The notes under the pieces were generated by a model that made no database searches, was not told the origin of the DNA, and saw nothing but the letters and a program-made list of their open reading frames with translations. Below, piece after piece: positions 17,197 through 22,783 of a DNA stretch of 64,000 bases. This DNA comes from an uncultured Nitrospiraceae bacterium (GTDB lineage: Bacteria > Nitrospirota > Thermodesulfovibrionia > Thermodesulfovibrionales > Dissulfurispiraceae): the NCBI GenBank assembly GCA_963705105.1, contig CAVPIW010000010.1, forward strand, positions 32,001-96,000, read 5' to 3'. Within the stretch, counting starts at the first letter, position 1. Every line of letters begins with the position of its first letter. Both the position numbers and the translations under genes were made by a program.

Positions 17197-17676
17197 TCAC
17201 GACTTCGGGGCAGGGCGGATGCCGATGGCTTCGAGCTCTTTGATCACCATCGCGACAAGGGTATCGATCCCTGACTGTATCGTCCCGGACAGATCGAGAC
17301 CCGTGTCGATCCGCTCCGGCTCTATCCCGATGAGCACGATGTGCCGGGGCATCCGGTCGGTGATCTGCGCGACGGCCAGGAGGTCCGACAGACCCAGTTG
17401 ATGGGGCGATATCTTGCTCGACAGGAAGACCGGTACGTCCTTGCCCTCGAGCCTGACGATCGTCCCCGGCGGGTTCCCGGACTTCACGACGTCGACGATG
17501 ATGACGTTCTCTTTGTCCTCAATGTACGGGAGAAGCTCCAGCCCCATGGTGCCGCCGTCGATCACCTCGACGTCGTCGGGCATATGGTATGCCGCGAGCA
17601 GTTTCTCTATGACACGGACACCGGCGCCCTCGTCCATGAGGAGGATATTGCCGATGCCGAGAATGGTGACAGCCAT
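17197..17676 (-). CDS. hybD: Hydrogenase maturation endopeptidase
   Basis: LGIGNILLMDEGAG, DGGTMG, SPHQLG. Confidence 0.92.
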   Translation of the reverse strand: MAVTILGIGNILLMDEGAGVRVIEKLLAAYHMPDDVEVIDGGTMGLELLPYIEDKENVIIVDVVKSGNPPGTIVRLEGKDVPVFLSSKISPHQLGLSDLLAVAQITDRMPRHIVLIGIEPERIDTGLDLSGTIQSGIDTLVAMVIKELEAIGIRPAPKS

Positions 17677-17693
17677 CAATTTTATCCTCCCTG

Positions 17694-17764
17694 TGGGGTC
17701 AGGTCTTGAATATTGACAATTGACCGTGCTCTGTTATGCAATCAATATTCAAGACCTGACCCCA
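17694..17764. repeat. Perfect 23-bp inverted repeat pair (REP-like hairpin)
   Basis: TGGGGTCAGGTCTTGAATATTGA (17694-17716) and its exact complement (17742-17764). Confidence 0.9.
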
Positions 17765-17765
17765 T

Positions 17766-17793
17766 AAAAGAGGCAGGCCCGGGCCTGCCTCTT
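17766..17793 (-). terminator. Terminator-like hairpin after hybC
   Basis: AAGAGGCAGGC-CCGG-GCCTGCCTCTT followed by TT. Confidence 0.65.
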
Positions 17794-17820: not shown

Positions 17821-19521
17821 CTAAAAGGCCTTGACCTTCACGATCTCCCGGCGCTTAGTGTCGACCATGTGAATGGCGCAGGCGAGGCAGGGGTCGAAGG
17901 AATGGATGGTCCTGAGGACTTCGAGGGGGCGCTCCGGATCGGCAACGGGGTTGCCGACCAGTGACGCCTCATAGGGCAGCATCTCGTCCTTGTCGCTCCT
18001 CGGCCCGGCGTTCCACGTCGAAGGGACGACGCACTGATAGTTCTTGATCTTGCCGTTGTTGATGACGATCCAGTGGGAGAGGACACCCCTCGGCGCCTCA
18101 TGGAAGCCTACACCCCTCTGCTCGCCCGTCGGGAAATTGGGACGGTTGTATGTCGTCGTGTCTCCCTTTCCGACGTTGTCGATGAGCAGCTGCCACTGCT
18201 TCCCGAGGCTCTCATACATCACGGCGCACCGGACGGCACGGGCGGCGATCCTGCCGATCGTCGAATGGAGGGCGGCGACAGGGATCTTCGCCTTGGCGAG
18301 GCTGCCCACCGTCGCCAGGACATGGTCGACGTACTTTTTCGTCGGTCCGTGGCCCGCGGCATACATGCACAGGACGTTCGCCAGCGGTCCTACCTGGGCG
18401 GGCTTGTCATAGAAGGTAGGCGCCTTCACCCATGAGTATCTCCCGTTGTCCTGGAAGTCAGTATACTTCGGAACAGTCTCCTCTTCCCAGGGGTGGCGGT
18501 TCCAGTTCCCGTCGTACCAGGCGTGCTTGATCGCTTCCTTGACGCCTTTCTTGAAGTAGTCGTCCTGAAAACTCTTGATCGGCTTGAATGTGCCGACATC
18601 GCCGTTCTCGATGAATCCTCCCGGCAGGTCGAAGACGGTCCCCTTCGTGTCGAGGGGAAGGTCGGGGACGCAGAGGTAGTTCGTCACGCCGGCGCCGTAT
18701 TTCGTCCAGTCGGCATACATGGCCCCGACGGCGCAGACGTCCACGAGGAGGACGTCCTTGACGAAATCGCCGATCTGGTCGATGTGCTCCTTGATTTTGA
18801 AGAGTCGTTCCACGGTGAGCGTTGACGGGCTGTCCAGATTGATGGGGTTTGCCACGCCACCGACGGCGAAGTTCTGGAGCTGCGGGGTTTTACCGCCGAG
18901 GATGCCGGGGATCATGTTGATCTTTCTCTGGAACTCCAGCGCCTGGAGGTAGTGGGCCGTCGCGAGGAGGTTCACCTCGGGCGGCAGTTTCATGGCCGGG
19001 TGGCCCCAGTATCCGTTGTCGTATATGCCGAGCTGACCGGAGCCGACAAAGGCCTTCAGCCGGTCCTGTGTCGCCTTCATCACCTTGTAGTTGTTCAACG
19101 GCCACGGAGACAGGCTCTCGCCGAGCTGGGCCGCCTTTTTCGGGTCCGCCTTCAGGGCCGAGACGATATCGACCCAATCAAGGGCGCAGAGATGATAGAA
19201 GTGGACGATATGGTCGAACACGGCATGGGACGTGATGATCATGTTGCGGATGTACTGCGCATTCAGGGGAATTTCCATGTTGAGCGCATTCTCTACCGAC
19301 CTCACCGAGGCCAGCGCATGGACGGATGTTCAAACGCCGCAGATGCGCTGGGCAAACACCCAGGCGTCGCGCGGGTCCCTACCCTGCAGGATCACCTCGA
19401 TGCCTCTCCACATCTGTCCCGATGACCAGGCGTTGGTGACTTTGCCCCCGTCGATTTCACAGTCTATACGGAGATGGCCCTCTATTCTCGTGATCGGATC
19501 AATGGTGATTCTTTTACCCAT
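17821..19521 (-). CDS. hybC: [NiFe]-hydrogenase large subunit (HybC type), 566 aa, in-frame UGA at codon 64 (candidate selenocysteine)
   Basis: ORFs 19330-19521 and 17821-19305 share a frame: DPITRIEGH...QRICGV(TGA)[15 protein letters not shown]...DPCLACAIH. Confidence 0.9.
19295..19315 (-). promoter_or_regulatory. Candidate bacterial SECIS element
   Basis: GCUGGCCUC-GGU-GAGGUCGGU: 9 consecutive pairs (3 G-U) with a GGU loop; 23 nt separate the UGA from the loop. Confidence 0.65.
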
Positions 19522-19536
19522 ATATTCCTCCTATAT

Positions 19537-20673
19537 TTATGCGTGCCTGAGATCAGGCAGCACAGGCACTTTCTTGACGATTATGAGGTATCCCATAATC
19601 TCGATCGAGATTATCCCAAGGGTGATCATAATCTCGCCGAATGACGGGAAGTACAGCCACTCCGTTCCGGGGTTGAACCCGACCAGGTAGGCATTGAACC
19701 GGTAGATCGCTCCTGCCAGGAGCATGAGCGCCGATGAGATGAAGAGCGACTGCGGCTTTGCCCTGCCGGACGGGGCGAAGAGCATGAGCATGGGGATGAT
19801 GTAGAGGATGTTCTCGAGGAGGAACATATTCCCCTTGAGATCGCCCTTGAAGGCGAGGCCGAGCTGTCCCCTCACGAGAAGGTCCCCGAAACGGATCGCG
19901 AGATAGACGGCGATCAGCCAGGGGATGATGCCGGCGATTTTTCTGAGGATCGGTGTCTCAAAGGGCCGCTTCAATCCCACCGAGGAGATGACCGATTCCA
20001 GGACAACAGTGGAATACCCCATGGTGACGACGGAGATGATGAACAGGAGCGGGAGAAATCCCGTGTGCCAGAGCGGTGAGAGCTTGCTCCCGGCGATCAG
20101 CAGGACCGACCCCAGCGAAGACTGGTGCATCGTCGGCAGCAGGATCCCGAGGGCGATGAATACGAAGATGAACTTGTTGAGTGTCTTCCGCAGGTTGTCC
20201 GCTTTGGTCTGCTCGAGGTAGGCAGGGGCCATCTCGATCCAGAGGACGCCCGTATAGAGGGCGATGCAGAGCGCCACCTCCAGGAGGACGGAATTGACGT
20301 TGATATACTGCGGCAGAAAGACGTTGTACATCTGCCAGTAACGGCCGATGTCGACAAAGACCGAGACGGCCGCCATCGTGTATCCGAAGAGGCTCGTCAG
20401 CACGGCGGGCCTGATGAGGGGATGATATTCCCCCTTGTTGAGGACATAGACAAGGATCGCCATCGCATAGCCGCCGCACCCGAGGGCCGTTCCCACGACG
20501 ACGTCATAGGCGATCCAGATGCCCCAGGCATAGCCGTCGTTCATGTTCGTCACGGCGCCGATGCCGTAAATGAACCTCTTGGCGAGATAGTAGGCGGCGA
20601 CGAGAGCGAATACCATGAGGACCATAAAGGGTTTCGTCAGGATTTTACCACCGATCGGTTTGCTTTCCTCCAT
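19537..20673 (-). CDS. hybB: NrfD-family integral membrane subunit of hydrogenase-2
   Basis: WGIWIAYDVV, DIGRYW, LPTMHQSSLG; multiple TM segments. Confidence 0.93.
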   Translation of the reverse strand: MEESKPIGGKILTKPFMVLMVFALVAAYYLAKRFIYGIGAVTNMNDGYAWGIWIAYDVVVGTALGCGGYAMAILVYVLNKGEYHPLIRPAVLTSLFGYTMAAVSVFVDIGRYWQMYNVFLPQYINVNSVLLEVALCIALYTGVLWIEMAPAYLEQTKADNLRKTLNKFIFVFIALGILLPTMHQSSLGSVLLIAGSKLSPLWHTGFLPLLFIISVVTMGYSTVVLESVISSVGLKRPFETPILRKIAGIIPWLIAVYLAIRFGDLLVRGQLGLAFKGDLKGNMFLLENILYIIPMLMLFAPSGRAKPQSLFISSALMLLAGAIYRFNAYLVGFNPGTEWLYFPSFGEIMITLGIISIEIMGYLIIVKKVPVLPDLRHA

Positions 20674-20698: not shown

Positions 20699-21640
20699 CT
20701 ATTTGTGGTGATCGTCGTCGTGCTTCTTCGTGCTCCTGTATGCGGCGAAGAGGAGCCCGGAGAAGACGGCGACAGGGGCGATAAACCCCGTGTAAATGCC
20801 ATGCTGGATTTTCTCGGACAGGACGGCGTCCGATTTATCGGGAAGCATCGGCAGTCCGAGCTTGTCGAAGGGCACGCTCGCAAGCATGAGGTACTGGGTG
20901 CCGCCGCCCTCCTTCTCCCCGTAAATGTGTTTCTGATAGACAGGCACCTCTCTCCTGGACGTGAAGTTCGACTTGATGTGCTGGACAGGATAGTCGTACC
21001 TTTTGCCCGGCTCGAGGGTCAGGCGCTTCCGGGCCTCGGCCAGGAGGTCTTCAACCTTCCCGAAGATGGAGGCCCCGACGGGGCAGACTTCGCAGCAGGC
21101 GGAGAATTTGCCGTCCTTGAACCGGTGATCGCAGAGCTGACACTTCCTGATCTGAGGGAAAGGTTTGTCCCACTCGAATTTTGGGACGTTATAGGGACAG
21201 GCGATCTGACAGTACCGGCAGCCGATGCAGGCATCCTTGTTGTACGTGACAACGCCGTTCTCGGGGTTCTTTTTCAGGGCCGAGACGGGACAGGCCGAAA
21301 CGCAGGCCGGGTCGATGCAGTGCATGCAGTGCCTTTTGACGAAGGAATAGATCTCGCCTTCCTTGTGCAGTTTGATGATGTTCAGTGTCTTGCCCGAGAG
21401 ATCGATCGGGTCGTCATAGAGCTTTTCGACGCTCGTATGATCGGGCGGCATGTTGTTCTGCTGCTTGCACCCGGACACACAGGCCTTGCAGCCGACGCAG
21501 ATGGTCGCGTCATAGAGAATCCCGACGGCCTCCTTCGGCAGTGTCATTGCCTCTCTCGCGAAAGCGGGCTGCACACCCGAGGCCACGAGGAGACCGCCTC
21601 CGACAGCTCCCTTCAGAAAATCACGCCGATTGATACTCAT
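20699..21640 (-). CDS. hybA: Tat-exported 4Fe-4S ferredoxin subunit
   Basis: NRRDFLK, four Cys clusters, YGEKEGGGTQ, C-terminal TM. Confidence 0.93.
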   Translation of the reverse strand: MSINRRDFLKGAVGGGLLVASGVQPAFAREAMTLPKEAVGILYDATICVGCKACVSGCKQQNNMPPDHTSVEKLYDDPIDLSGKTLNIIKLHKEGEIYSFVKRHCMHCIDPACVSACPVSALKKNPENGVVTYNKDACIGCRYCQIACPYNVPKFEWDKPFPQIRKCQLCDHRFKDGKFSACCEVCPVGASIFGKVEDLLAEARKRLTLEPGKRYDYPVQHIKSNFTSRREVPVYQKHIYGEKEGGGTQYLMLASVPFDKLGLPMLPDKSDAVLSEKIQHGIYTGFIAPVAVFSGLLFAAYRSTKKHDDDHHK

Positions 21641-21643
21641 GGT

Positions 21644-22783
21644 TTACTTCTCCTCGGCGCCGGACTTCCCGGAGCCGGCGCTTTCACCGGATTTGCCGAG
21701 ATTCTTCGCAAGCATGGCGCCTGCGCCGATGGCGGCGCCGCCGACGCCTGCCAGGATCGCTGCGGAACCTGCAGTCAGGCCTTCTCCCTGGCGCTCCCTG
21801 ACCCCAGGGTAGGTCGCGGGAGGAGTGAAGAACTGGACCCTTGAGGGCGAGTGAATCGGGATGTTGAAGCCTACTCCTTTCTCTGAACAGCCGAAGCAGG
21901 GATGACCGATGCCGACGGGCCAGCTTCCCGAGCCTGTGTCGCCGAAGAGGAGGGACGGGCAGTTGTTGTATGTTTCCGGTCCCTTGCATCCGAGCTTGTA
22001 GAGGCAGTATCCCTGACGGTGCCCCTCGTCGCCGAAGACCATGGCAAAACGCCCTGCGTCGAAATGGGGCCGCCGCTCGCAGTTTTCGTGGATCAGTCTT
22101 CCATAGGCGAACTTCGGCCTGCCCTTGTCGTCGAGGGCGGGGAGTTTCTTGAAAGTCACGAAATAGAGGACCGTCGAGAGGAAATTGTAAGGGTTCGGCG
22201 CGCAGCCCGGTATGTTCACGACCGTGTATCCCTTGAGCACTTCCGAGACGCTGCTCGCGCCCGTCGGGTTCGGCGATGCCGCAGGGATGCCTCCCCATGC
22301 GGCGCAGGAGCCGATGGCGATGATCGCGGCGGCATGAGGGGCGACCTCCTTGATGTGCTCGAGGGCGGTCTTGCCGGCGATCTTGCAGTAGATCCCCCCG
22401 TCCTTGACGGGAATGGCGCCATCGACGACGAGGACGAATTTCCCCTTGTTCGCCTTGATCGATTTCTCCCGGACCGCCTCCAGGTTGTGTCCCGAGGGCG
22501 TGCTGAGCGTTTCGTGGTATTCCAGGGAGATGAGATCGAGGATGAGATGCTCCAGTGTGGGATGGTGTGTCCTCAGGAGCGATTCCGTGCAGCCCGTGCA
22601 TTCCTGGAACGAGAGCCAGATGACAGGCGGGCGCTTCGGGCTCGTGGCGGCCTCCGCAATCCTGGAACCCATGCCAAGGGGCAACCCCATACAAGCGGCC
22701 ATGGCGGAACAGAACTTGAGGAAATCCCTCCGCGATACGTCTGTGAGCTTTCTTCCGCCCAGATACATACCTTTTCTTAGCAT
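21644..22783 (-). CDS. hybO: Hydrogenase small subunit
   Basis: SRRDFLK Tat motif, QECTGC, GSCAAWGG, IPGC, HENC, CLYKLGCKGP, HPCFGC. Confidence 0.94.
   Translation of the reverse strand: MLRKGMYLGGRKLTDVSRRDFLKFCSAMAACMGLPLGMGSRIAEAATSPKRPPVIWLSFQECTGCTESLLRTHHPTLEHLILDLISLEYHETLSTPSGHNLEAVREKSIKANKGKFVLVVDGAIPVKDGGIYCKIAGKTALEHIKEVAPHAAAIIAIGSCAAWGGIPAASPNPTGASSVSEVLKGYTVVNIPGCAPNPYNFLSTVLYFVTFKKLPALDDKGRPKFAYGRLIHENCERRPHFDAGRFAMVFGDEGHRQGYCLYKLGCKGPETYNNCPSLLFGDTGSGSWPVGIGHPCFGCSEKGVGFNIPIHSPSRVQFFTPPATYPGVRERQGEGLTAGSAAILAGVGGAAIGAGAMLAKNLGKSGESAGSGKSGAEEK

Follow-up and report, generated by a model that had tools for sequence, protein, structure and literature searches.

We analysed a 64,000-nucleotide stretch of DNA from an uncultured Nitrospiraceae bacterium (GenBank contig CAVPIW010000010.1, positions 32,001 to 96,000, hereafter the window), which carries an operon for a Hyb-type [NiFe] hydrogenase. 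The gene of its large subunit, the counterpart of Escherichia coli hybC, contains one in-frame UGA codon at the place of the second cysteine of the N-terminal metal-binding motif, and a hairpin follows the UGA. Judging from the sequence, we consider it very probable that this hairpin acts as a selenocysteine insertion sequence (SECIS) and directs selenocysteine (Sec, U) into the position that bridges nickel and iron in a Group 1c enzyme similar to E. coli hydrogenase 2 (Hyd-2). Below, this form is denoted CxxU, in contrast to Cys-type (CxxC) genes, and the genome to which the window belongs is denoted G000; other genomes and fetched loci carry the prefixes G and L.

An in-frame UGA at the codon of the bridging cysteine

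Translation of the reverse strand showed that the frame at 17821-19521 (Table 1) has a sole internal stop, the TGA at 19330-19332, which corresponds to residue 64. The N-terminal motif reads RICGVU (C61 and U64, in the context RICGVUTSVH), with U encoded by UGA. In the C-terminal motif DPCLACAIH (C545, C548 and H551), which is followed by a tail of 15 residues, both Cys codons are TGC. The initial annotation had described exactly this arrangement, i.e. one 566-codon frame interrupted by TGA at the second Cys of RICGVC with ordinary Cys codons in DPCLAC, and it had anticipated that gene callers would split the gene; all of this was borne out, as gene calling with translation table 11 divided the frame into two open reading frames (ORFs) of 63 and 494 amino acids. 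Of the 54 stop-to-stop frames in the window that are 250 codons or longer, 27 end with TGA, and the genetic code is therefore the standard one.

In a Pfam search the read-through protein covered positions 1-508 of the PF00374 profile. Its best solved relative was the large chain of E. coli Hyd-2 (6en9_L), with a score of 774 bits and a collinear alignment over residues 1-565, as compared with 570 bits for the next family in the Protein Data Bank (PDB), 3myr. Hyd-2 is termed 'group 1c' in PMC8020662 (this and all other papers given by PMC accession are cited from excerpts). Since the alignment to HybC was without gaps over residues 1-103, C61 and U64 are equivalent to C61 and C64 of HybC.

The TGA is one base away from a Cys codon and the assembly consists of 19 contigs, so that a TGC or TGT misread in sequencing or assembly had to be considered. 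However, the codon at 19330-19332 was read as TGA only, and never as TGC or TGT, in contigs from two public runs, which belong to two studies (X1, record 1; X2, records 9 and 10), and one of the X2 contigs, derived from a variant strain, kept the TGA despite 11 other differences in 163 nt. The contigs of two further runs, X3 and X4, did not bridge the codon. Moreover, neither the hairpin nor the presence of the TGA in 29 of 35 orthologues (see below) is explicable by an error in this particular assembly. We therefore regard an error as scarcely credible.

A hairpin downstream of the UGA and selection on its sequence

The RNAfold minimum-energy structure contained a hairpin at 19295-19315, the stem of which begins 14 nt past the UGA and the loop of which is separated from the UGA by 23 nt; folded alone, the hairpin had an energy of -11.9 kcal/mol. 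Its position, nine base pairs and GGU loop agreed with those given in the initial annotation. A bacterial selenoprotein gene is expected to have a stem-loop just 3ʹ of the UGA, with G at positions one and two of the apical loop. The usual distance from UGA to loop in bSECISearch is 16-37 nt, and the 23 nt found here falls within this range. As the amino acid sequence at the hairpin is itself conserved, synonymous resampling is the right null model. The outcome was clear: when the same 21 residues were re-encoded 3000 times with synonymous codons, drawn according to the codon usage of seven neighbouring genes, 18 samples had an equally stable hairpin whose first two loop positions were G.

We compared the hairpin among relatives with a finder that required an ungapped stem of at least 4 bp and a loop of 3-10 nt beginning with two G residues. 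With a cut-off of -6 kcal/mol, a hairpin was found in 82 of 87 distinct CxxU genes and in 43 of 60 genes of a sister form, UxxU, that is described further below, as compared with 8 of 26 Cys-type genes. In several of the other UxxU genes (e.g. L024) RNAfold gave a bulged stem, which is invisible to the ungapped finder. Within the clade of the window's gene, six of the seven Cys-type genes had no hairpin better than -3.7 kcal/mol. At least four hairpin designs occur in this clade; in all of them the loop opens with two G residues, and the distance from the UGA to the start of the loop is 16-27 nt. Because of these different designs and registers, a count of base pairs in a fixed register over 147 Sec-type sequences was uninformative. 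The window's own design recurs in six loci (L189, L066, L188, L191, L088 and L051), with changes that preserve pairing (G.U to A-U and U.G to U-A); no double compensatory change within the design was seen among these six.

The strongest constraint was visible in 25 orthologues that share another design, ACGCACUG-GCUU-CAGUGCGU. Here the codon entropy was 0-0.76 bit at codons +4 to +11, while four- and six-fold degenerate codons on either side of the hairpin had 1.4-2.2 bits. Codons that could vary freely without changing the protein were nearly frozen: His was CAC in 25/25 sequences, Ala was GCA in 25/25 and GCT in 19/19, Val was GTG in 25/25, and even the six-fold Arg was CGT in 24/25. Synonymous sites that are frozen exactly over the hairpin indicate selection on the RNA. 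The difference in frequency between CxxU and Cys-type genes shows that the hairpin goes with the TGA forms, and both results favour the interpretation of the initial annotation.

Conservation of the UGA among relatives

The initial annotation had proposed a search for relatives with TGA at the same codon, and such relatives were found. Five orthologues with 71-73% identity had it in a set of 41 related genomes. In an even sample of 401 Nitrospirota genomes, 35 rows with at least 69% identity covered residue 64, and by hand count 29 of them had one TGA and six had none. Sixteen of the 29 TGA orthologues were fetched, and in every one the TGA was at exactly codon 64. As related genomes are not independent, we give counts and not p-values.

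A DNA pattern that requires TGA at the second Cys, searched in one genome per GTDB species, yielded at least 119 loci. All those listed are hydrogenase genes that read QR[IF][CU]GVUT[TS]VHA. The listed matches span at least six phyla (Nitrospirota/Thermodesulfovibrionales, Chloroflexota including Anaerolineae, Thermodesulfobacteriota, Rokubacteria/Methylomirabilia, Spirochaetes and Nitrospinaceae), and Desulfobulbia, Desulfobacterales and Desulfobacca are also among them. Eighty loci were fetched with their flanks. The frame was maintained as far as DPCxxCxxH in 69, with Cys in that motif in all 69; another six ended at a contig edge, and five lost the frame (L044, L048, L080 and L087, as well as L045 at a run of N). 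The UGA is thus aligned to a Cys of the homologues and the reading frame is conserved beyond it, as expected of a selenoprotein gene. When the tree was rooted with the sister clade, CxxU genes branched off first. The rows from other phyla came from the TGA-only pattern, however, with the Cys-type there unsampled, and this sampling allows no conclusion as to whether Sec or Cys came first.

These data also bear on the possibility that the TGA is a true stop, so that the gene is a pseudogene or is expressed in two pieces (63 residues and a restart) without a full-length subunit. The split by table 11 and the five of 80 TGA-type loci from other genomes that lose the frame further on would fit with this explanation, as would the fact that the closest relatives by identity have Cys. 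Yet the TGA falls, in many lineages, on the single codon where Cys or Sec is indispensable; the 502 codons downstream are open and match the family strongly (711.9 bits to PF00374 and 774 bits to E. coli HybC); the operon is otherwise intact; and the hairpin is selected at synonymous sites. A fragment without C61 and U64 would also be unable to bind nickel, since the metal is held by a site of four Cys. We consider a true stop very unlikely.

Selenocysteine machinery and an additional tRNA

The genome G000 (99.4% complete, 19 contigs) was searched for selA, selB, selC and selD, as had been suggested in the initial annotation, and all four are present: selA (496 bits), one selB (74 bits on SelB-wing_3), a tRNA-Sec of 98 nt with the anticodon UCA, and selD (C11:79300-80208, L011). 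The selD gene carries one in-frame TGA itself, which suggests that SelD of this organism is probably a selenoprotein. According to a hand tally of the rows listed, 94 genomes have a TGA-type hydrogenase and 91 of these also have SelA; the other three are 86-89% complete. In family f30, SelA was found in none of 28 genomes and all 11 listed hydrogenase rows were without stops. Since Cys-type genomes belonging to the same order have SelA too, it is a necessary but not a discriminating condition.

Several observations weigh against the insertion of Sec. The three closest relatives in the set of 41 genomes (75-78% identity) are Cys-type, and the loci obtained with the DNA pattern, being selected for TGA, are uninformative about its frequency outside the phylum sample. 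The support for the codon comes from assembled contigs and not from raw reads, and X1 may be the source sample. The gene was in no RNA run listed, and no proteomic evidence for it was found. A general fold test over 66 nt was weak and not significant (z = -1.36), with 17 of 200 dinucleotide shuffles being equally stable in RNAfold, and a search of 19150-19450 against Rfam, with E up to 10, gave chance-level matches only and no SECIS family. The hairpin of -6 kcal/mol or better in eight of the 26 Cys-type genes also has to be counted here; in a Cys-type close relative (L154, genome G214) a hairpin of -8.0 kcal/mol stands in the same place, possibly as a SECIS remnant after a change from Sec to Cys. 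The z-scores of minimum free energy (MFE) over the whole region failed to separate the types (means of -0.91 for CxxU, -0.79 for CxxC and -0.07 for UxxU), but the null was biased, with codon usage pooled from those same regions, and the hairpin-specific search and the neighbouring-gene null were used in its place. Finally, G000 has, in addition to a normal 74-nt tRNA-Cys and the tRNA-Sec, an extra 96-nt tRNA with the anticodon GCA (C10:176596-176691, minus strand; L002:1497-1592), which might compete at the UGA.

The extra tRNA gives rise to the chief alternative to our explanation, namely that the UGA is recoded by the same SECIS/SelB route and yet read, wholly or partly, as Cys by a tRNA-Cys with the shape of tRNA-Sec (similar to SelC* or tRNA-ReC). 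The mature enzyme would then have an all-sulfur site, or it would switch between Se and S with the selenium supply. The 96-nt tRNA scores 55.9 bits on the tRNA-Sec model and has, as read by eye, an acceptor stem of 8 bp and U as the discriminator. According to PMC13582414, SelC*/tRNA-ReC tRNAs are able to place Cys at UGA when a SECIS is given, and they are enriched in genomes with UXXU hydrogenases. The anticodon GCA, however, pairs with UGC and UGU and not with UGA. The long tRNA-Cys is also present in G024 and G033 (both Cys-type), G015 (no matching hydrogenase), G021 (CxxU) and G026 (UxxU); it occurs in these six genomes, including G000, irrespective of the hydrogenase type and hence does not track the TGA. 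A single SelB was found in G000, and the neighbours of the 96-nt tRNA are a rhodanese and an HGD-D protein, with no second cysteinyl-tRNA synthetase or SelB. A route that gives only Cys would also provide no reason to retain a costly UGA and a SECIS in so many lineages. Insertion of Cys therefore appears unlikely to us, and Sec insertion remains our preferred explanation.

Predicted synthesis and function of the enzyme

According to the SECIS-directed model, a ribosome that reaches the UGA would meet the hairpin located 14-35 nt downstream, which would act as a bacterial SECIS and recruit SelB-GTP with Sec-tRNA(Sec); Sec would be inserted and translation would continue for 502 more codons. The Hyp system would then insert the NiFe(CN)2CO cofactor, the HybD-type protease would cut after His551 and remove 15 residues, and the large subunit would be exported together with the small subunit, which bears the twin-arginine translocation (Tat) signal; the product would be a periplasmic enzyme anchored in the membrane. 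Electrons from H2 would pass from HybO to HybA and through the NrfD-type HybB to quinone, as in E. coli Hyd-2.

In the mature site the selenolate of U64 is predicted to replace the thiolate that bridges Ni and Fe, giving a NiFe(mu-Se)(mu-S) core, while the position occupied by Sec in classical [NiFeSe] enzymes would stay sulfur. The bridging role is assigned to U64 because of its equivalence to C64 of HybC, established structures and the prediction in PMC13582414 that the Sec of CXXU bridges Ni and Fe. The initial annotation had likewise postulated a Hyb-type hydrogenase with a Se-bridged Ni-Fe site, and the presence of the Sec genes, the relatives with TGA, the TGA-specific hairpin and the equivalence to Cys64 all speak for it. 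By analogy with an engineered Hyd-1 variant, C79U (see below), we would expect the enzyme to be active, its KM for H2 to be lower and its tolerance of O2 to be no better.

The operon and neighbouring features

The genes of the operon are listed in Table 1. The initial annotation had considered hybO, hybA, hybB and hybD to be intact, with which the Pfam matches agreed. A small subunit with a Tat signal, HybA, an NrfD-type HybB and a HybD protease are the components of a Group 1c (Hyb-type) operon. Sec at the first C-terminal Cys, which defines the classical [NiFeSe] enzymes (Group 1a Hys), is absent, as both codons are TGC. The true start of hybD may be downstream of the listed TTG.

Table 1. 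Location of the hydrogenase genes, the UGA codon and the SECIS-like hairpin in the window.
Feature	Coordinates	Strand	Remarks
hybO-type small subunit	21644-22783	minus	PF01058 and PF14720; twin-arginine signal SRRDFLKF
hybA-type 4Fe-4S ferredoxin subunit	20699-21640	minus	Fer4_11 and TAT_signal (Pfam); Tat signal NRRDFLKG
hybB-type integral membrane subunit, NrfD family	19537-20673	minus	PF03916, E = 1.1e-13
hybC-type [NiFe] hydrogenase large subunit	17821-19521	minus	566 codons and terminal stop; PF00374 711.9 bits, residues 39-551
UGA codon 64, proposed to encode Sec where the N-terminal motif has its second (Ni-Fe bridging) Cys	19330-19332	minus	
SECIS-like hairpin GCUGGCCUC-GGU-GAGGUCGGU	19295-19315	minus	9 bp, GGU apical loop
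hybD-type maturation endopeptidase, HycI family	17197-17679	minus	PF01750, E = 4e-35

Two repeats were noticed between hybC and hybD. A perfect inverted repeat with 23-nt arms that are 25 nt apart (17694-17716 and 17742-17764) overlaps the listed TTG start of hybD. A perfect GC-rich palindrome of 26 nt (17768-17793) lies directly after the stop codon of hybC, with TTTT next on the coding strand; it is terminator-like, but the T-run is below the threshold of the scanner. Elsewhere in the genome (G000 C16:8744-10354) there is a second Group 1-like large subunit, 47% identical and without an internal stop. With this all-Cys gene and the TGA-type gene in the window, the organism has both hydrogenase types.

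Other probable Sec-type hydrogenases

The large subunits of a sister clade in Group 1 share 47-53% identity with that of the window. TGA stands at both of their N-terminal Cys codons (RI*GV*, with asterisks for TGA), and their C-terminal motif has Cys. This UxxU form accounted for 53 rows in the phylum sample, and 62 loci were fetched (L024, L026, L028-L033 and 54 more). In a representative locus (L026:1492-3201, minus strand) the operon consists of a small subunit, the large subunit, a cytochrome b and HycI, and the best solved match of the large subunit is the Group 1 enzyme 3myr_B (757 bits). UXXU is called 'previously unrecognized' in the excerpts of PMC13582414, where it is given for Group 4 only, and no other account of a UXXU hydrogenase was found in the literature; a Group 1 clade of this kind seems to be unreported.

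Inside the sister clade there is also a third Sec-type subgroup, which is CxxU and reads FVSRICGV*TTVHS (L173-L182; e.g. in genomes G213, G323 and G355). The DNA pattern misses this subgroup because Ser follows His. In G323 and G355 this form occurs alongside a Cys-type paralogue.

Significance and comparison with known systems

N-terminal Sec in hydrogenases has been noted in sequences before. In 2007 the large subunit of a hydrogenase, 'FrhA', was noted to have a CxxU position (PMC1976440), and Baltazar et al. 2011 listed N-terminal CXXU for three sequences, two of Group 1 and one of Group 3. The latter study is known to us through the citing paper, PMC13582414, and its Group 1 sequences may or may not belong to the Hyb-type clade. 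'Purported examples' in which the bridging Cys is replaced are mentioned in PMC8020662, and a survey of 47 Group 4 sequences in 2026 listed 27 with CXXU, 4 with UXXC and 16 with UXXU (PMC13582414). The paper on Ca. Sulfobium labels the enzyme of this organism '[NiFeSe] HysLS' (PMC5812927), and a 2026 review of prokaryotic selenoproteomes, as far as its excerpts go, gives hydrogenases with UxxC only (PMC13188914). No biochemical study of a natural hydrogenase with N-terminal Sec was found in the literature. The statement of the initial annotation that no characterised example is known thus holds for biochemistry and needs correction with respect to sequences, since CxxU is already in print. As a kind, CxxU is not new and occurs widely among uncultured anaerobes, and as far as the literature shows it is biochemically uncharacterised; the gain from the window's gene is modest, as it adds a further member to a known variant.

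Work on [NiFeSe] enzymes, and the design of catalysts inspired by them, has so far been built on one position, the terminal Sec of the C-terminal motif. If our explanation is true, a natural enzyme with bridging Se would make it possible to test how a chalcogen in the bridge tunes the binding of hydride, the affinity for H2 and the damage by O2; so far the effect of bridging Se is known to have been probed only with an engineered E. coli variant (PMC8020662). As standard gene calling splits or loses such genes, hydrogen metabolism is under-annotated in metagenome-assembled genomes of Nitrospirota, Anaerolineae and Desulfobulbia. On a wider scale we can offer only a tentative suggestion, which we hold to be rather doubtful: bridging Se may be the prevailing natural form of Hyb-type enzymes in anaerobic Nitrospirota and their allies, with a sister UxxU clade that has two selenolates (one terminal and one bridging), and Se may provide a property beyond the reach of sulfur, such as a higher affinity for trace H2, while the tRNA-Cys might allow a fallback to Cys when Se is scarce.

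Close counterparts of the window's enzyme are the N-terminal CxxU sequences described in silico. They have U at the same place in the motif RxCGxC, its second Cys, and for them too a bridging Sec is predicted. In the excerpts of the earlier reports Group 1 CxxU sequences are treated as exceptions, whereas here they are the majority (29 of 35 in the phylum sample).

The classical [NiFeSe] hydrogenases (Desulfomicrobium baculatum and Desulfovibrio vulgaris Hys; Group 1a) are likewise periplasmic Group 1 enzymes with one Sec among the four Ni ligands, and the route via UGA, SECIS and SelB is the one that we propose here. In these enzymes, however, Sec takes the place of the first Cys in the C-terminal DPUxxC and is a terminal Ni ligand, whereas the gene in the window has TGC there and the proposed Sec is at the N-terminal bridging position. 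The properties associated with the classical position, i.e. O2 tolerance and a bias towards H2 production, cannot be assumed for the window's enzyme.

The engineered E. coli Hyd-1 variant C79U carries Sec at the equivalent N-terminal second Cys, also in a Group 1 enzyme. It retained 13% of the native activity, the best of four Sec variants, and had a lower KM for H2 but was nearly inactive at 10% O2 (PMC8020662). As described there, this variant differs in being artificial: Sec was introduced via UAG and EF-Tu into an O2-tolerant Group 1d scaffold, and was neither natural nor co-evolved with it.

In overall organization the system resembles E. coli Hyd-2 (HybOABC and HybD; Group 1c; PDB 6en9 and 6ehq), with the same order of small subunit, HybA, HybB, large subunit and protease, Tat signals on both the small subunit and HybA, and the same four ligand positions. 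The two differ in their hosts, an enterobacterium and a Nitrospirota anaerobe, and in ligand 64, which is specified by a Cys codon in E. coli and by UGA with a SECIS-like hairpin in the window.

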